This document shows positions 862 through 64,000 of a stretch of DNA of 64,000 bases, one piece after another. The DNA is from Escherichia virus TH58: the sequence record MT446423.1, one strand, 5' to 3'. A program made the position numbers and the translations under genes. Positions within the stretch are counted from its first letter, which is position 1. Every line of letters begins with the position of its first letter. Under the pieces are notes generated by a model. It was not told where the DNA came from. It ran no database searches and saw nothing but the letters and a program-made list of their open reading frames with translations.

Positions 862-1683
862 ATGAGCATATTCCAAATTATATCTGAAGGCGTACAAGCC
901 ACTAAGATTGCTCAGTCTATGAATGAAAGAAAATGGATTGAGATAGGATTAGAGTACAAGAAAGCTAAAGAGAAAGGAATCACTGCAAAAGCATTTGCAG
1001 AATCAAAAGGAATAAAATACTCGTCGTTTACATCTGCAATGTCTAGATATGCATCATCTATTAAGATTGCACAGAAAATTGAAACGCTTGAATCTAAACC
1101 TAAAAATAAACTCAATAAGCAAGAACGTCAACTTCTGATGATAAACTCGTTTCGCAGTTCAATACGAGAAAAGATTAGAAATGAAGGCGCAGCAGTAAAC
1201 AACAAATCATCTAAGTGGTTTGTTGAAACAATTAAGAAAAGTGTAAAAGGTCATAAAGTAGTCAAGCCTATGCCAGGCAAAATTTATACTTACGTGTATG
1301 ATGCTAAACATAAAGATACTCTACCATACTGGGACCGATATCCTTTGATTATTTATTTAGGATTAGGTAAACATAATTTGATGTATGGGTTAAACTTGCA
1401 CTATATCCCACCTAAAGCACGACAACAGTTTCTTGAAGAATTGCTGAAGCAATATGCTAGCACAACTACTATTACTAATAACACAAAGTTGAAGATAGAC
1501 TGGAGCAAGGTGAAAGGATTTCAAGGTGCTGACAAAATGATTAAAGCATACCTGCCAGGCCACATTAGAGGAACAATAACAGAAATCGCTCCTAAAGACT
1601 GGGCTAACATAATCATGTTACCTACTCAGCAATTTATGTCAAAAGGAAAACGTTTCTCTGCGAATACTGTTTGGAAATCTTAA
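862..1683 (+). CDS. 2: DNA end protector protein gp2
   Basis: 273 aa (T4 gp2 274 aa), synteny between gene 4 and gene 3. Confidence 0.75.
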
Positions 1684-1785
1684 TTCTATTCTCTTCCGTT
1701 CTTCTGATATTCTGTTAAACCGGATTAATGGAAGAGACCTAAAACCATTATACTGCATTTTTATTAAAGCGTTTTTGAGGTGCTT

Positions 1786-2370
1786 ATGACTCGTCCAGCG
1801 AGACAGATTTTTAACCAAACAAATATAACAAACTTTGTTGTGGATATCCCGGATAGTACACGAACTTCAGGTTTTGTGCTCAATGCCCAAACGGCTCCAT
1901 TACCTGGTGTGAGAATTCCTGTTGTTGAAACTGTGACGGGCACAATGGGGTTAGGACGTGCAATGCGCGCAGGCACTACATTTGAATATGACCCTTTTAT
2001 TGTACGATTTATAGTTGATGAAGACATGACGTCCTGGATGAACATGTATAAATGGATGCTCAGCACTAATAACTATATAACCGGTCATAATACAGCCCAT
2101 GCTGATGGTCCTGAGTTTGTTACTTTGCACATTTTAAACAACAATAAGACTGAAGTAGTTTTGACGGCGAATTTCTATAAACCATGGATTTCTGATTTGA
2201 GTGAAATTGAATTTAGTTACACCGAAGACTCTGACCCTGCCGTTACGTGCGTAGCAACTATTCACTATGCGTATATGACGATAGAAAAGGATGGTGAAGT
2301 CATTGTATCTCAACAACCACGTCAAGCAGTCGAATCTAAATCCATTTCTAGACACCCTTCCTTGCGTTAA
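1786..2370 (+). CDS. 3: Tail completion / sheath stabilizer gp3 (by synteny)
   Basis: ATG at 1786 preceded by GAGG; track ORF begins at in-frame GTG 1780; position between genes 2 and 1. Confidence 0.55.
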   Translation: MTRPARQIFNQTNITNFVVDIPDSTRTSGFVLNAQTAPLPGVRIPVVETVTGTMGLGRAMRAGTTFEYDPFIVRFIVDEDMTSWMNMYKWMLSTNNYITGHNTAHADGPEFVTLHILNNNKTEVVLTANFYKPWISDLSEIEFSYTEDSDPAVTCVATIHYAYMTIEKDGEVIVSQQPRQAVESKSISRHPSLR

Positions 2371-2423
2371 TCGCTTCTAGCTCCGTATGTTATAATCACT
2401 CATAAATTATATGAGGAAAACCT

Positions 2424-3158
2424 ATGGAGCTAATCTTTTTAAGTGGCATCAAACGTAGCGGTAAAGACACTACTGCTGATTACATCAATTCAAACTTTAA
2501 GTCCGTAAAATACCAATTGGCATATCCGATTAAAGACGCTCTAGCAATAGCCTGGGGACGTAAACATGCTGAAAACCCTGATGTATTCACAGAGTTGAAA
2601 TACGAATACTTTGAAGGTGTTGGATACGACCGTGAAACACCATTAAATCTCAATAAGTTGGATGTTATTGAATTATTGGAAGAAGCGCTAATTTATTTAC
2701 AAAGTCAATATTTACCAATTAATAATGTTAAAGTATTATCATCATTAGAAGGTGGGTATTCATATCTAGATATTAAACCATATGAAGCCCTGCGTGAAGC
2801 TATAAATAATATCAACGACACATGGTCAATCCGCCGTCTTATGCAAGCCCTCGGTACGGATGTTGTCGTTAATTTATTTGACCGTATGTATTGGGTTAAA
2901 CTTTTTGCATTAAACTATATGGATTATATTGGAAGTGATTTCGATTACTATGTTGTAACCGATACACGCCAAGTCCATGAAATGGAAACCGCTAGAGCGA
3001 TGGGTGCTACAGTTATTCATGTGGTTCGCTCTGGTACGGAATCCACCGATAAACATATTACAGAAGCTGGGTTGCCTATTGAAGAAGGCGATTTAGTTAT
3101 TACAAACGACGGCTCTTTAGAAGAGCTTTATTCTAAAATTGAAACAATCTTAAGGTAA
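2424..3158 (+). CDS. 1: Deoxynucleoside monophosphate kinase gp1
   Basis: N-terminal P-loop LIFLSGIKRSGKDTTADYI; 244 aa; T4 gp1-like. Confidence 0.85.
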   Translation: MELIFLSGIKRSGKDTTADYINSNFKSVKYQLAYPIKDALAIAWGRKHAENPDVFTELKYEYFEGVGYDRETPLNLNKLDVIELLEEALIYLQSQYLPINNVKVLSSLEGGYSYLDIKPYEALREAINNINDTWSIRRLMQALGTDVVVNLFDRMYWVKLFALNYMDYIGSDFDYYVVTDTRQVHEMETARAMGATVIHVVRSGTESTDKHITEAGLPIEEGDLVITNDGSLEELYSKIETILR

Positions 3159-3162
3159 TAAA

Positions 3163-3848
<686 letters not shown>

Positions 3849-3862
3849 TTTTCACAAAACAG

Positions 3863-3891
3863 TTTACATAAGGATGATGGTGTGTTACTAT
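3863..3891 (+). promoter_or_regulatory. Early promoter (GTTTAC -35, TACTAT -10) inside inverted repeat AGGATGA/TCATCCT
   Basis: GTTTAC at 3863-3868, 17-nt spacer, TACTAT at 3886-3891; inverted repeat flanks the -10 element. Confidence 0.5.
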
Positions 3892-3926
3892 CATCCTATC
3901 AAATAAACAACCAAATGGAACCTAAA

Positions 3927-4190
3927 ATGAAAACTTTCAACGAATTCATCTCAGAATCGTCTGGTGTGAAAATTAACAAAGCGGTTAATCAGGTTATTGC
4001 TGATATTCTTAATTTGTATAACATTGACTTAACTCCGCATATCACGCTTGGTAACAAACGAAACTTTTTTATATTTGACACATCCGAACTTGATGAAAAC
4101 CAGTTCAATAACATTCAACGTTTTGCGAATGATAAAGGTCTTCGACACGAGCCTGGCGGCTATAAAAAATACGCAATATATTTGAAATAA
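3927..4190 (+). CDS. Internal-protein-like ORF with capsid targeting sequence (IPI position)
   Basis: Starts MKTFNEFISE, matching the T4 IP capsid targeting signature MKTYQEFIAE; sits at the ipI position between 57B and the tRNAs. Confidence 0.55.
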   Translation: MKTFNEFISESSGVKINKAVNQVIADILNLYNIDLTPHITLGNKRNFFIFDTSELDENQFNNIQRFANDKGLRHEPGGYKKYAIYLK

Positions 4191-4192
4191 AG

Positions 4193-4222
4193 GTATACAA
4201 ACCTATAGGGATATGTTATAGT
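4193..4222 (+). promoter_or_regulatory. Early promoter variant (GTATAC -35, TATAGT -10) with flanking inverted repeat
   Basis: Motif ...GGGATATGTTATAGTAGTCCTATC, shared with several other intergenic sites. Confidence 0.45.
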
Positions 4223-4259
4223 AGTCCTATCAAAACAAATGAGTAAATGGAGAAATAAA

Positions 4260-4445
4260 ATGAAACGCGCTGAACTGATTCGTAATGTTGCTGTAGTAAT
4301 TGCTTCAGTAGCTTTTAGTTTTTCGATGTTTGTAGGATTCATTTGTGGACTACTGACAACAACAGAAAATTCTATCTCATTGGTAGTAGCATTTCTAATC
4401 GGCTTAATCGCTATCGTTATGGATAAAATTGCAAAAGGTGAGTAA
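4260..4445 (+). CDS. Small membrane protein
   Basis: ATG 4260 with GGAG RBS; hydrophobic stretch VAVVIASVAFSFSMFVGFICGLL. Confidence 0.45.
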   Translation: MKRAELIRNVAVVIASVAFSFSMFVGFICGLLTTTENSISLVVAFLIGLIAIVMDKIAKGE

Positions 4446-4446
4446 A

Positions 4447-4809
4447 ATGAAATATCATGTATATGCGGATTTTGAAGCAAATCCTTCTAAAGACCCTGAT
4501 TGTCGTTTGATACGCGAACCATTTGATTCAGCAGCTCAAGCATGGGCTTGGATTAAATCTAAATCGCCTGGTTATATGTTCTTTGAAGTAGTCGATGACA
4601 ATGGTACACTGCATCCAGAACCTACAGAAACTATTAATTTCCTTCTGTTTGCTGGTTACGACTGTTATCCTCTTGGTGGTATTGACGACCTTGTTGCTAC
4701 AGGAAAAACCGTTGAGGCTCTTCGCGAAATTTATAAAAACGCAGAAGAAAATTTTGACTGGTATCATATTGTTGATGCTCACACCTTTGAAGTGGTGGAA
4801 CACTCATGA
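4447..4809 (+). CDS. Hypothetical protein
   Basis: ATG 4447 after AAGGTGAG; 120 aa. Confidence 0.55.
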   Translation: MKYHVYADFEANPSKDPDCRLIREPFDSAAQAWAWIKSKSPGYMFFEVVDDNGTLHPEPTETINFLLFAGYDCYPLGGIDDLVATGKTVEALREIYKNAEENFDWYHIVDAHTFEVVEHS

Positions 4810-60027: not shown

Positions 60028-60361
60028 TCTCGATGATTTGAATCTAGAAATCGTTGATGAATCCCCTTCTTCGGAAGGGGAAGACATTCGCAAAGAACGA
60101 GTGTTTAATGAATCTCTTAAAATTATCCGTTCAGCAATGGAAAATGTCATTCAAGAGATTCTGATTACACTTGAAGACGGTTCCCATCATATAGTCTATA
60201 TTACAAAACTAGACTGGGTTGATGGTAAAATCGTAATGGACTTTGCAGTTCTTGACCAGGACAGAAAAGCAGAACTTGCACCACATGTTGAAAAATGTGT
60301 TACAATGCAAGTACAACAAGCTTTTAATGAACGGACCAAGAAAAAATTTAAATTCTTTTAA
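60020..60361 (+). CDS. Hypothetical protein at the T4 gene 40 position
   Basis: ATG 60020 overlapping uvsX stop; 113 aa; assignment by synteny only. Confidence 0.45.
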   Translation: MNNLDDLNLEIVDESPSSEGEDIRKERVFNESLKIIRSAMENVIQEILITLEDGSHHIVYITKLDWVDGKIVMDFAVLDQDRKAELAPHVEKCVTMQVQQAFNERTKKKFKFF

Positions 60362-60370
60362 GGAGTTATC

Positions 60371-61813
60371 GTGGTAGAAATTATTTTGTCTCATCTAGTA
60401 TATGACCAGGCTTATTTTTCTAAGGTCTGGCCTTATATGGATTCTGAGTATTTTGAGCGTGGACCGGCAAAAAATGTCTTTAAAATTATAAAGAGCCACG
60501 TTAACGAATATAATGCAATGCCATCTATTAATGCGTTAAAGGTGGCTTTAGATAACAGTTCTTTAACTGAAGCCGAATACAAAGGAACTTCAGACCTAAT
60601 TGAAAAATTGGCTGATACTCCTGAAGACCACGAATGGTTGGTTAAAGAAACTGAGAAATATGTCCAGCAAAAAGCGATGTATAATGCTACATCCAAAATC
60701 ATTGAGATTCAGTCTAATGCTGAACTACCTCCAGAACAACGTAACAAGAAAATGCCTGACGTAGGAGCTATTCCTGATATTATGCGTCAAGCACTTTCAA
60801 TTTCGTTTGATAGTTATGTTGGGCATGACTGGATGGAAGACTACGAAGCACGCTGGCTTTCTTATCTAAATAAAGCACGTAAGGTCCCGTTCAAATTAAA
60901 CATTCTGAATAAAATCACTAAAGGTGGTGCTGAAACCGGTACGCTGAATGTTTTAATGGCCGGTGTTAACGTTGGTAAATCTTTAGGCCTTTGTTCACTT
61001 GCTGCAGATTATCTTCAAACAGGTCATAATGTTCTTTATATTTCCATGGAAATGGCCGAAGAAGTTTGTGCTAAGCGTATAGATGCAAACATGCTTGACG
61101 TATCACTCGATGATATCGATGATGGTAACGTATCTTATGCTGAATATAAAGCTAAGATGGAAAAATGGCGTTCAAAATCCACATTAGGACGTTTAGTAGT
61201 TAAACAGTATCCTACTGGCGGAGCTAATGCTAATACATTCCGTGCGTTGCTTAATGAATTGAAACTCAAGAAGAACTTTGTGCCATCTGTAATCATGGTT
61301 GATTACTTAGGTATTTGTGGGTCTTGTCGTATCAGAGTTTACACTGAAAATAGCTACACATTAGTTAAAGCTATCGCAGAAGAACTTCGTGCATTAGCAG
61401 TAGAATCTGAAACAGTTCTATGGACTGCAGCTCAAGTAGGACGTGCAGCATGGGATGCTTCAGACATGAACATGAGCGATATTGCAGAATCAGCAGGTTT
61501 ACCAGCAACTGCAGATTTCATGTTGGCCGTAATTGAAACCGAAGAACTTGCACAAGCTGAACAACAACTTATCAAACAAATCAAATCACGATACGGTGAT
61601 AAGAATAAGTGGAATAAATTCCTGATGGGTGTACGCAAAGGCAACCAGAAATGGGTTGAGATTGAGCAAGAAGGCATGAACACACCTAACACAGTAAATG
61701 AAAACGCAGGTGCTCAGATGCGTCAGGCAGAGGTGAATCGTACGGAACGCGTAGGTAAAGCCAAAGCAACACGTGCTGACCTAGATAGCTTAGCCAATGA
61801 GTTAAAATTTTAA
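60371..61813 (+). CDS. 41: Replicative DNA helicase gp41 (DnaB family)
   Basis: GTG start after AAGGAG; Walker A GVNVGKS; 480 aa. Confidence 0.9.
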   Translation: MVEIILSHLVYDQAYFSKVWPYMDSEYFERGPAKNVFKIIKSHVNEYNAMPSINALKVALDNSSLTEAEYKGTSDLIEKLADTPEDHEWLVKETEKYVQQKAMYNATSKIIEIQSNAELPPEQRNKKMPDVGAIPDIMRQALSISFDSYVGHDWMEDYEARWLSYLNKARKVPFKLNILNKITKGGAETGTLNVLMAGVNVGKSLGLCSLAADYLQTGHNVLYISMEMAEEVCAKRIDANMLDVSLDDIDDGNVSYAEYKAKMEKWRSKSTLGRLVVKQYPTGGANANTFRALLNELKLKKNFVPSVIMVDYLGICGSCRIRVYTENSYTLVKAIAEELRALAVESETVLWTAAQVGRAAWDASDMNMSDIAESAGLPATADFMLAVIETEELAQAEQQLIKQIKSRYGDKNKWNKFLMGVRKGNQKWVEIEQEGMNTPNTVNENAGAQMRQAEVNRTERVGKAKATRADLDSLANELKF

Positions 61814-61819
61814 TAAAAA

Positions 61820-61838
61820 GGAGACTTCGGTCTCCTTT
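61820..61838 (+). terminator. Putative terminator hairpin
   Basis: GGAGACTTCGGTCTCC followed by TTT. Confidence 0.4.
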
Positions 61839-61842
61839 CGGG

Positions 61843-61872
61843 GTTTACATCTTCCTCTAGGCATGGTATGAT
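61843..61872 (+). promoter_or_regulatory. Early promoter GTTTAC / TATGAT
   Basis: GTTTAC 61843-61848, 18-nt spacer, TATGAT 61867-61872. Confidence 0.5.
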
Positions 61873-61901
61873 AGACTTACACCAACCAAGAGGAGAACAA
61901 A

Positions 61902-62219
61902 ATGAAAACCATCGATTGTAAAGCAGAATTTAAGATTTTTTATCACGGTTCAAGTAGTTCAGCTAACATCGAAAACATGCTTTGCCCTCCTGAAGAAACA
62001 GGAGTTCTGTCTGAAACTGGACGTAAGAAAAACTTGGATCGTGTATTCTTTACTGAAGATATCGGTTTAGCAAAGATTTATGCAGGACGAGCAGCACGCT
62101 CTTATGGAGGTGAACCACGTCTCTATCGAGTAATTTCTCCGGTGGACGTAGTTCAAATGAATAATACTAAAGGTGCTACAGTTTATCACGCTGAATGGGC
62201 ATTTTGCGAGGAAATATGA
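61902..62219 (+). CDS. Hypothetical protein with F-Y-H-G-S motif
   Basis: 105 aa; AAGAGGAG RBS; FYHGSSSS is reminiscent of H-Y-E class ADP-ribosyltransferases but the protein is short. Confidence 0.45.
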   Translation: MKTIDCKAEFKIFYHGSSSSANIENMLCPPEETGVLSETGRKKNLDRVFFTEDIGLAKIYAGRAARSYGGEPRLYRVISPVDVVQMNNTKGATVYHAEWAFCEEI

Positions 62220-62407
62220 GCAAATTAACTAAAGTTACTTTTATCGGTTGGTTTAAAAGCGGCGAGATGTTCACTAAAGATATCATGTTATCAGGTGATC
62301 GCGAAGAAATCGAGTGGGTTGCGGTACAACTTGCTGAAGTGAACAACGCATTAGTTAAAGCATTTGTTAATGACGAGAAAGTTTTTGAAGCTGATTTCAG
62401 AGGATAA
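62216..62407 (+). CDS. dmd: Dmd (discriminator of mRNA degradation; antitoxin against RnlA/LsoA)
   Basis: MSKLTKVTFIGWFKSGEMFTKDIM...EVNNALVKAFVNDEKVFEADFRG resembles T4 Dmd from memory; 63 aa. Confidence 0.65.
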   Translation: MSKLTKVTFIGWFKSGEMFTKDIMLSGDREEIEWVAVQLAEVNNALVKAFVNDEKVFEADFRG

Positions 62408-62408
62408 T

Positions 62409-62621
62409 ATGTATTCAACTGTGTTTAAACCATCAACATACGAATTTGCATCAACTACACAATGGAAAGCTCTTATTCTGGAAGGATGGGAACTAATGAT
62501 GGACTGTGAAGCATCTGAAAAGTTTCCACACGGCAAAGTGGACTTCGTTAAATTTGCTGTACGTCCGACTAAACGACAGATTCGTCAAGAAAAACGCAAA
62601 TTTCGCAAAAGTTTAAAATAA
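62409..62621 (+). CDS. Small hypothetical protein with basic tail
   Basis: ATG 62409 after AGAGGA; 70 aa. Confidence 0.45.
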   Translation: MYSTVFKPSTYEFASTTQWKALILEGWELMMDCEASEKFPHGKVDFVKFAVRPTKRQIRQEKRKFRKSLK

Positions 62622-62623
62622 CT

Positions 62624-62653
62624 GTTTACAAGCATCGCATACTGTGTTACTAT
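62624..62653 (+). promoter_or_regulatory. Early promoter GTTTAC / TACTAT
   Basis: GTTTAC 62624-62629, TACTAT about 18 nt downstream. Confidence 0.45.
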
Positions 62654-62681
62654 CTTTCTATCAACTACAGAGGAAATTGAA

Positions 62682-63050
62682 ATGAAAAAATTAATCGCTT
62701 TAGCAATGGTATTTGGATTAACCGGATGTGGTGCCCATGGCTTTATCCCTAATAACGTTGGCCAACTGATTTACAATCCGAATGTTAAACAGTATGACCA
62801 ACCTAAAGTTGAAGTGGAAGACCCGGTTACTGTAGGTAATCGAATGATTCAAGCTGATGCTCATGCTCAACGTTATCGTGACTCTGATACTGTAGCATTG
62901 TCAAAAGAACAACGCGTTAAAGAACATTGTCTACAGGCTACTGAAATCGCATTCATTCGCTATGTTGAAACAACTGGTAAAGAGCCTACCCAGAAACAAA
63001 TCGCGAATAACTACGTCCAGTGTATTGAACGTTTAAACAAATTTAATTAA
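62682..63050 (+). CDS. Lipoprotein
   Basis: Signal peptide with lipobox LTGC; 122 aa. Confidence 0.55.
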   Translation: MKKLIALAMVFGLTGCGAHGFIPNNVGQLIYNPNVKQYDQPKVEVEDPVTVGNRMIQADAHAQRYRDSDTVALSKEQRVKEHCLQATEIAFIRYVETTGKEPTQKQIANNYVQCIERLNKFN

Positions 63051-63111
63051 TTGGTTTACACCAAAGTTAAAATAAGATATTATAAACATAACAAATCAAG
63101 AGGAAATTAAC

Positions 63112-63360
63112 ATGGAATTATTCGTAGCTAGTTCAGTAGCAGTTTTAATCGCAGGTATTGGTTCAATCATCATTTACATGTTGCCTTGGGTAATCGCACT
63201 TATTCGTGGCACAAAAAGCACAACAGCAATCTTCTTTGTATCTTTACTCTTTAACTGGACGATGATTGGTTGGATTGGAACTTTAATTTGGTCTATCGTT
63301 GCCGAAAAGAAATCTGCTCAGCAGCCTCAACAAGTAATTATTATTCGCGAAAAAGAATAA
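63112..63360 (+). CDS. Small two-TM membrane protein (possible superinfection-immunity-like)
   Basis: 82 aa; two long hydrophobic helices; AAGAGGAAA RBS. Confidence 0.5.
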   Translation: MELFVASSVAVLIAGIGSIIIYMLPWVIALIRGTKSTTAIFFVSLLFNWTMIGWIGTLIWSIVAEKKSAQQPQQVIIIREKE

Positions 63361-63364
63361 ACTT

Positions 63365-63394
63365 GTTTACATTATAGATGGACTATGGTATAGT
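63365..63394 (+). promoter_or_regulatory. Early promoter GTTTAC / TATAGT with GGACTAT...TAGTCC hairpin
   Basis: GTTTACATTATAGATGGACTATGGTATAGTAGTCCTATC. Confidence 0.5.
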
Positions 63395-63423
63395 AGTCCT
63401 ATCAAATCAACTAAGGAGTTAAA

Positions 63424-63717
63424 ATGAAAAAGTTATCATTGGCAGCAATCTTACTTGCAGTATCATGTGCACCAGCTCCAGTTACGGCAGGTTATGATAA
63501 AGACCTCTGTGAGTGGTCAATGACTGCAAATCAAGAAGATGTTGAACAACAAATCTTCTCTGATATCATGAACATCACTAAACGAGACCGTCCTAATATG
63601 GTTAATAAAGTTGTTGGACAACTTAAGTCTGGCGGTATCATGCAGTACAACTATGTTTTGTATTGTGACCCTAATTTCGATAACAAAGATATCGTAACCG
63701 AAATCACAGGTGAATAA
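63424..63717 (+). CDS. sp: Spackle-like periplasmic protein (superinfection exclusion; T4 gene 61.3)
   Basis: Signal peptide; 97 aa, same length as T4 Sp; ...GYDKDLCEWSM...YNYVLYCD... resembles T4 Sp from memory. Confidence 0.5.
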   Translation: MKKLSLAAILLAVSCAPAPVTAGYDKDLCEWSMTANQEDVEQQIFSDIMNITKRDRPNMVNKVVGQLKSGGIMQYNYVLYCDPNFDNKDIVTEITGE

Positions 63718-63718
63718 T

Positions 63719-64000
63719 ATGATTTATTATATGCACAAAAATGCACCGTTTAAATATGGTAAATTTCCTAATGCACAATGTTATAATATAACGCCGAATG
63801 AAAATAATAACGGATATCATATTGGTGTAATTTTTGTAATTGTTAAAGATAACGAAATCGTTGCCTGGGCAGATTTTAAAGGTACAACATATGATGTTAA
63901 TCCTGTGCCTTTCACATATTACAATATAATGGATTTGGCATATGATTATAATTGGTTTACTCATGACACGTTGGATCATATTGAAGGTGTAGGATTTGAC
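63719..64000 (+). CDS. Hypothetical protein, 5' part (continues beyond window end)
   Basis: ATG 63719; frame open to the last base of the window. Confidence 0.45.
   Translation, partial: MIYYMHKNAPFKYGKFPNAQCYNITPNENNNGYHIGVIFVIVKDNEIVAWADFKGTTYDVNPVPFTYYNIMDLAYDYNWFTHDTLDHIEGVGFD

Follow-up and report, generated by a model that had tools for sequence, protein, structure and literature searches.

An Arr-related minimal ADP-ribosyltransferase-fold protein at the head of the anti-toxin operon in an RB69-like phage

In phage T4 the antitoxin gene dmd follows directly 3′ of gene 41, with no open reading frame (ORF) between them. What, then, is the additional 105-amino-acid ORF that separates these two genes in Escherichia virus TH58? 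The DNA analysed here (the window) is a 64,000-nucleotide stretch of this phage (sequence record MT446423.1), and all features are given on its + strand. The ORF in question (61902–62219, hereafter ORF105) lies in the RB69-type version of the T-even early anti-toxin/superinfection-exclusion island. A first-pass annotation, made from the sequence alone, had singled it out as extra with respect to T4, which the comparison bears out, and had recognized several of its neighbors; that the island itself is already published, tifA and adfA included (PMC9391042), had escaped it. Most of what is found at this locus is therefore known. The new part is ORF105 only, which very probably encodes a minimal protein of ADP-ribosyltransferase (ART) fold related to the rifamycin-modifying enzyme Arr.

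ORF105 is a real and constrained gene. Its product is identical to RB69ORF040c, the two differing only by synonymous changes in the DNA, and it falls into PHROG 2110 (E 7e-60), an unannotated family. The ratio of nonsynonymous to synonymous substitution rates (dN/dS) is 0.10 against the Dhakavirus homolog and 0.095 against the Tegunavirus homolog. Searches with tblastn place the gene in 609 phage records, all T4-like, at 63–100% identity, from phages of Escherichia, Klebsiella, Acinetobacter, Aeromonas, Enterobacter, Cronobacter, Vibrio and other hosts, and within the close family an alignment of 28 sequences shows 27 invariant positions. ORF105 also has its own Shine-Dalgarno sequence and early promoter. 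No T4 homolog is present in the interval between gene 41 and dmd; for the rest of the T4 genome, absence is deduced from the composition of the 609 matches rather than from a whole-genome scan. A few GenBank records name homologs of ORF105 “ADP-ribosyl transferase” without supporting evidence. NARP3, also considered in the literature, is unrelated to ORF105.

What kind of protein does this gene encode? AlphaFold2, given the family alignment, returned a confident model (mean pLDDT 87, pTM 0.78), and its Foldseek comparison with the PDB and BFVD points to the ART fold, including the split β-sheet. The top structural similarity of the model is to the nicotinamide adenine dinucleotide (NAD+) lobe of KptA/Tpt1, and the first BFVD match beyond the close family is a 94-amino-acid phage protein named “Ms Rifampin ADP-ribosyl transferase.” The family profile, run exhaustively with HMMER, gathered 219 relatives, many of them stand-alone proteins of 100–150 amino acids and others domains inside proteins of 200–3,900 amino acids. 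The Pfam family Arr-ms is matched by 32 of the 47 multidomain relatives (best E 1.8e-9, over profile positions 1–67 of 99 only), and several relatives exceed the Pfam gathering score (27–29 bits versus 25). With a broadened profile (A3) the top PDB matches are Arr (2HW2/9IAF), and hhalign aligned the broadened profile with Arr-2 over ORF105 residues 6–84 at 92% probability (E 6e-7), with an Arr-2 sequence of which residues 13–88 were checked against the Arr alignment from the PDB profile search. By sequence ORF105 is closest to Arr, and by structure to Arr and to the NAD+ lobe of KptA/Tpt1; confidence in both the ART fold and the relationship to Arr is high.

The conserved residues are consistent with this assignment. 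The F13-Y14-H15-G16-S17 motif (61938–61952) is a genuine ART β1 motif. Its core, H15-G16-S17 (61944–61952), aligns with H19-G20-T21 of Arr-ms (including His19), and H15-G16-[ST]17 is invariant in the 120 close and 99 distant relatives alike. F49 (97–100% conserved) and Y60 (100%) form an F49-X10-Y60 aromatic pair, so that the His and aromatic residues associated with NAD+ binding are both present. A like spacing, Y-X10-Y, is found in the NAD-stacking pair of diphtheria toxin, Y54-X10-Y65. Residues conserved across the close and distant clades are Y14, H15, G16, [ST]17, P29-P30, E38, G40, R41, K43, N44, F49, T51, D53, A57, Y60, R63, G69-G70 and G91. Judged from these alignments, the elements for NAD+ binding are kept, namely the His-Gly-Ser/Thr that closes β1, the Glu-x-Gly-Arg of the loop after it and F49…Y60. 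In Tpt1 the HG[ST] motif contacts the NAD+ ribose (PMC6333775).

Where else does this domain occur? The distant relatives are encoded on contigs with phage hallmarks, including ribonucleotide reductase, thymidylate synthase, SNF2 helicase and runs of small ORFs, and in multidomain proteins the fusion partners are ART-PolyVal, NUDIX, 2H/Acb1-like phosphoesterase (a single case among the 47 multidomain relatives), Toprim/primase, GNAT, PcfJ, ParB-like and portal protein domains. Such architectures have been termed “polyvalent proteins” and were predicted by Iyer et al. to be injected with phage DNA and to act early in conflicts (PMC5512222, PMC9503650). The long relatives were also considered as bacterial polymorphic toxins, a reading that was rejected because the contigs are phage-like, the partner domains are of the polyvalent-protein type, none of 72,556 plasmids holds a match to the family and species genomes hold almost none. 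A pattern scan of 185,579 species genomes returned only six loci. Three of these are contigs with homologs 63–70% identical to the T4-like family, two of them 167–178 kb long, as are T4-like phage genomes. Two others are stand-alone ORFs of ~145 amino acids from Patescibacteria, one on a Ca. Kaiserbacteria chromosome (3902–4348 of the extracted piece) and the other also assigned to Patescibacteria (3923–4354); they are the only apparently chromosomal homologs found in this set, and one adjoins an insertion sequence-type integrase gene. The family is otherwise restricted to phages.

Within the T4-like phages the position of the gene differs from genus to genus. It lies directly 3′ of gene 41 in Mosigvirus, Dhakavirus and Tegunavirus, and in Acinetobacter phage 133 it is found in the interval between genes 41 and 61, where four other ORFs separate it from gene 41. 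In KP15 (Slopekvirus; locus piece 1593–4196) and Aes012 (Tulanevirus; locus piece 1681–4572) it is located a few genes upstream of srd. For comparison, T4 carries modB and modA directly upstream of srd. Its downstream neighbor is dmd in the genera Mosigvirus and Dhakavirus and sp in Tegunavirus; in KP15, Aes012 and Acj133, small ORFs unrelated to these follow it. Yersinia phage TG1 (locus piece 1501–2108) has gene 41, the mini-ART gene and sp in succession, with neither dmd nor tifA between them and with the ART and sp genes overlapping by 4 nt. In several genera the ART gene is the most persistent occupant of the slot 3′ of gene 41.

What might a protein of this fold, family, conservation, operon position and phage restriction do? 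Four predicted early promoters would fire in the first minutes of infection and give transcripts of ORF105-dmd-tifA, imm.1, imm and sp-adfA. As a single-domain member of a phage-restricted ART branch, ORF105 would bind NAD+ and transfer ADP-ribose to a host component directly after infection. The transfer would serve counter-defense or host takeover, by analogy with Alt, AcrF11 and the ART domains that ejected polyvalent proteins carry. As acceptor, a nucleophilic hydroxyl or phosphate, or a substrate with a part of its own in catalysis, seems more likely than a classical Glu-dependent protein target; such acceptors are ranked somewhat above protein because the nearest relatives are Arr, which modifies a small-molecule hydroxyl, and Tpt1, which modifies a phosphate, and because the typical Glu is absent. 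Taken whole, the explanation in which the island carries ORF105 as an NAD+-dependent early effector of counter-defense or takeover is favored by a narrow balance of the evidence. Whether ORF105 is catalytically active is an even call, and a role in counter-defense or takeover is judged to fall slightly short of even. The fullest version is tentative and rather unlikely to hold in all its parts. It posits a phage-restricted minimal ART family without the canonical Glu/Asp that modifies a universal non-protein or substrate-assisting acceptor (candidates, covered by the same judgment, are the phosphate ends of RNA or DNA, immune signals derived from nucleotides, and other small molecules). ORF105 would then be a fourth, enzymatic counter-defense factor of the island, and its domain a recurrent module of ejected polyvalent proteins.

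Several observations weigh against an NAD+-dependent effector. The canonical catalytic Glu/Asp/Gln, the third residue of the H-Y-[EDQ] triad, is absent from ORF105; residues 80–93 contain no invariant acidic residue, and the conserved E38 and D53 lie in other parts of the sequence. With an incomplete triad, ORF105 could be a pseudo-enzyme or a ligand binder. F49 aligns with Tyr49 of Arr, a position at which Tyr is 87% conserved in that family (PMC6092378). The Foldseek E-values against the PDB are weak (0.013–0.018), as is that of the Arr match to the broadened profile (0.017). ORF105 itself has no match in Pfam, NCBIfam (E ≤ 1) or PADLOC, and a sequence search of the PDB returned nothing with the single sequence or with the close-family profile. 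Across genera no conserved neighbor, immunity gene or antidote gene was found, and no partner that points to a substrate; nor is the operon link to dmd-tifA universal, given the position near srd in KP15 and Aes012 and the lack of dmd in TG1. Finally, the literature on RB69ORF040c, on Arr-like phage ARTs and on counter-defense ARTs of T4-like phages yielded no experimental characterization.

The distant relatives add a further element to the question of catalysis. At position 93, the start of β5 (62178–62180), the T4-like clade has Thr or Ser, and ~23% of the distant relatives have Glu or Asp, within a G-[ST]-E-V-[YF] motif; it is here that H-Y-E ARTs carry their catalytic Glu. This residue may be a vestige of an ancestral triad, and the family may hold both “complete-triad” and “degenerate-triad” members. 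The first-pass annotation had raised an ART resemblance from the F-Y-H-G-S motif, rated it weak, and named a lack of conserved catalytic residues as the finding that would count against it. The fold and homology have since been upheld along three independent lines, by structure search, by profile alignment to Arr and by the Arr-ms matches of relatives; as to catalytic residues, the finding is divided, the NAD-binding His-Gly-Ser/Thr being invariant but the canonical Glu/Asp missing.

Could ORF105 instead be an anti-defense ART that targets protein, modifying and inactivating a specific host protein of immunity or a toxin, in the way that AcrF11 acts on Cas8f and T4 Alt on MazF? Enzymes of this kind normally need the catalytic Glu/Gln of an H-Y-E or R-S-E triad, which ORF105 lacks. 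That homologs from phages of Aeromonas and E. coli retain 63% identity speaks for a universal target over a strain-specific defense protein, and hhalign found no match to T4 ModA or ModB, which belong to a different ART clade. A protein target of this sort is considered unlikely. An alternative that requires no chemistry is a non-catalytic binder of NAD+ or an ADP-ribose derivative, whether a pseudo-enzyme, a “sponge” for ADP-ribose signals or a decoy for a host factor that recognizes the ART fold. The combination of a missing catalytic acid with invariant NAD-pocket residues suits it, as do the very small size and single domain of ORF105, and phage sponges for NAD-derived signals exist in Tad1 and Tad2. 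However, the domain recurs in polyvalent proteins beside enzymes (ART-PolyVal, NUDIX and 2H), a setting better suited to an enzyme module; both of its nearest relatives, Arr and Tpt1, work with no catalytic Glu; and ~23% of distant relatives have Glu/Asp at the β5 position. This alternative too is regarded as doubtful.

A nucleic-acid end modifier like KptA/Tpt1, which would place ADP-ribose on RNA or DNA phosphates in repair of, or protection from, damage by toxin RNases, would fit the top structural match of the model and the one fusion to a 2H phosphoesterase. Yet that fusion is one of 47, and hhalign gives no significant match between the family profile and the NAD+ lobes of four Tpt1 proteins (3.3% probability). 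ORF105 is a single 105-residue domain rather than a two-lobe protein and has no Pfam PTS_2-RNA match; it lacks the N-terminal RNA lobe, which bears three of the four residues of the tetrad, Arg-His-Arg-Arg, that Tpt1 cannot do without (PMC6333775). Such an activity is decidedly improbable.

Arr is the closest family by sequence and other phages have been reported to carry ARTs of the Arr family (PMC9503650), so might ORF105 be a genuine Arr that ADP-ribosylates rifamycins and shields from antibiotics the host RNA polymerase that the phage needs? Arr is defined by its HGT motif, by Tyr49, by a catalytic Asp84 within DPN[VL] and by rifampin sites at 87–95 and 126–133 (PMC6092378, PMC8492726). 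The first of these has its counterpart in ORF105, and the second is replaced by an invariant Phe. Both the hidden Markov model and hhalign alignments end at ORF105 residues 83–84, just before DPN[VL]; an ungapped continuation places N87 at Asp84, with Asn ~60% conserved there. The first rifampin site is not alignable and the second would lie beyond the ORF105 C-terminus, and relatives reach 26 bits against the 130-bit cut-off of the NCBIfam Arr equivalog NF033144. On these comparisons ORF105 is assigned to an Arr-related branch of the ART superfamily and not to Arr proper, and a true rifamycin-modifying Arr is essentially excluded. Last, a chance or decaying ORF without function, which shortness and the lack of a direct curated-domain match might have suggested, is already refuted by the conservation data (dN/dS of ~0.1, 609 records, 27 invariant residues), by the Shine-Dalgarno sequence and early promoter and by the confident fold prediction.

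Just past the stop codon of gene 41 and just 5′ of an early promoter lies a hairpin with a UUCG tetraloop (61817–61838; RNA fold −12.8 kcal/mol, z −2.5), a putative terminator or PeSL-type stem-loop that is identical in RB69. The arrangement of hairpin and early promoter is that of the PeSL cassette of Arbiol et al. (PMC2839356, PMC4122927). The promoter predicted for ORF105-dmd-tifA (61843–61872) is of T4 early type, GTTTACA-N17-TATGAT with a TG extension, and further early promoters were matched by pattern for imm.1 (62624–62653), imm (63054–63083) and sp-adfA (63365–63394). The T4 early-promoter shape GTTTACA-N17-TANNNT occurs 11 times in the 64-kb window, against 0.37 expected, always on the + strand (at 3862, 10806, 12101, 16688, 30163, 32539, 39617, 61843, 62624, 63054 and 63365), a list that can serve to locate candidate early promoters of T4 type throughout the window. 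Four of the 11 fall within the 1.6-kb island, each 30–40 nt 5′ of a start codon. These positions suggest four transcription units, ORF105-dmd-tifA, imm.1, imm and sp-adfA. In the first, the stop codon of ORF105 overlaps the start codon of dmd in an ATGA, and dmd and tifA are one base apart; the T4 dmd-tifA pair is likewise under one early promoter (PMC9391042). An Rfam scan of 60300–64000 found no RNA family.

The remaining genes of the island are of known kind, and their identities, read from domain matches and pairwise comparison, can be regarded as practically certain. The product of dmd (62216–62407; Pfam Dmd PF17587, E 2.4e-20; PHROG 2102), an antitoxin against RnlA/LsoA, is a full-length match at 73 bits against a Pfam cut-off of 27 and is 55% identical to T4 Dmd. 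Adjoining it, tifA or gene 61.4 (62409–62621; Pfam DUF7279, 3.5e-20, 72 bits) encodes a ToxN inhibitor 57% identical to T4 gp61.4, with the basic cluster RPTKRQIRQ-KR-FRK conserved. The imm.1 gene (62682–63050; Pfam DUF5481, 3.7e-9; PHROG 1754; RB69 annotation) encodes a predicted lipoprotein with an LTGC lipobox and Cys16 apparent in the translation. The membrane protein Imm (63112–63360; RB69 annotation; PHROG 1039) is a full-length match to Pfam Imm_superinfect (1.5e-15, 57 bits) with transmembrane stretches visible in its translation, and confers immunity to superinfection. The periplasmic superinfection-exclusion protein Sp, or Spackle (63424–63717; Pfam T4_Spackle, 3.7e-42, 143 bits), is 66% identical to T4 Sp over 97 amino acids and has a hydrophobic N-terminus in keeping with a signal peptide. 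Imm is the classical superinfection-immunity protein, and together Imm and Sp keep the DNA of phages that arrive later from entering the cell. The island continues beyond the window with adfA, or gene 61.2, encoding anti-DarT factor A, of which the 5′ part is present (63731–64000); the 90 amino acids held here are 98% identical to RB69 gp61.2 and 59% to T4 gp61.2, and a published Cas13 guide against adfA of RB69 matches 63761–63791 exactly (PMC11257639).

All ORFs named in the first-pass annotation exist at the positions it gave. It had correctly picked out dmd and a Spackle-like protein; its lipoprotein proves to be Imm.1 and its two-transmembrane protein is Imm, for which the suggested part in exclusion is correct. 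Its gene list was sound as far as it went but overlooked tifA and the 5′ part of adfA. In T4 and RB69, Dmd neutralizes RnlA/LsoA, TifA neutralizes ToxN and AdfA counters DarT (PMC9391042; LeRoux laboratory, PMC11257639). Srikant, Guegler & Laub (2022) reported the inhibition of ToxN by TifA, with RB69 TifA the more potent allele, and proposed that dmd, tifA and adfA constitute an “anti-TA (toxin–antitoxin) island” in which other genes are attractive counter-defense candidates (PMC9391042). A separate observation concerns product names. In the HX01 RefSeq record NC_018855 (locus piece 2640–3281) the TifA homolog is called “DNA polymerase” and Imm.1 “iduronate sulfatase,” evident annotation errors, and the latter name for Imm.1 occurs in the T4 RefSeq record too.

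How does this region compare with its nearest relatives? The 2.3 kb around the island are 98% identical at the DNA level to RB69, HX01, JN02 and ~150 other Mosigvirus genomes, and the window is that of a Mosigvirus, an RB69-like T4-type phage. Annotations of the RB69 type give the order gp41, ORF041c, ORF040c, dmd, 61.4, imm.1, imm, sp and 61.2, and the order in the window is the same minus ORF041c. RB69ORF041c (124 amino acids) is missing at 61843–61920 (compared with 1640–2150 of the RB69 locus piece). A 430-bp cassette with this gene has been cleanly lost between two similar segments, each comprising early promoter, ribosome-binding site and start codon, and the counterpart of the 61843–61872 promoter in RB69 drives ORF041c. 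The layout without ORF041c recurs in eight other Mosigvirus records (SQ17, 348Ecol098PP, EP02SG, NHEP36, CEV1, ZQ3, VIPECOMC06 and JQD51), and ~150 Mosigvirus records retain the gene. ORF041c is dispensable, since it is absent from the window and from these eight phages, and its loss is a natural example of modular gene loss of the PeSL type.

ORF105 ranks among the most conserved accessory genes of the non-T4 Straboviridae and heads an operon with two proven toxin inhibitors, and its domain is found again in polyvalent proteins whose predicted fate is to enter the host together with the DNA of other phages. RB69 can be engineered by Cas13 counter-selection, which makes ORF105 open to direct test. 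If its target were demonstrated, a new enzymatic mechanism of counter-defense or host takeover would be in hand, together with the smallest functional ART module known in phages and a role for a so far unexplained domain of polyvalent proteins.

Set beside known systems, the island resembles the T4/RB69 anti-TA island, dmd-tifA(61.4)…adfA(61.2) with sp, in having the same genes in the same order 3′ of gene 41, in the early promoters that drive them and in the operon shared by dmd and tifA. Its proteins are 55–66% identical to those of T4 and 98–100% to those of RB69. It differs from T4, as RB69 does, in the imm.1-imm pair inserted between tifA and sp (in T4, imm and imm.1 are placed between genes 42 and 43) and in the extra ART-fold gene 5′ of dmd; it differs from RB69 in the lack of ORF041c, and ORF105 has therefore been joined to the ORF041c promoter.

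The protein itself differs from each characterized ART to which it can be compared. Relative to Arr (PF12120; 2HW2, 9IAF), ORF105 is ~40 residues shorter, has Phe in place of Tyr49 and is without Asp84/DPN and the rifampin sites, and its family is restricted to phages whereas Arr is bacterial. Relative to KptA/Tpt1 (9LD3, 6E3A, 7KW9), it is without the N-terminal RNA lobe and hence without the Arg-His-Arg of the catalytic tetrad. The anti-CRISPR ART AcrF11 (6KYF) has no detectable sequence relationship to it, and its target Cas8f belongs to a narrow-range system, whereas conservation of the ORF105 family extends over phages that infect many genera. With the other early phage ARTs ORF105 would share action at the very start of infection, and its domain appears with ART-PolyVal in the same polyvalent proteins. 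Unlike those ARTs, it is not packaged in the virion here but predicted to be expressed from an early promoter, and it belongs to a different ART clade from ModA and ModB.

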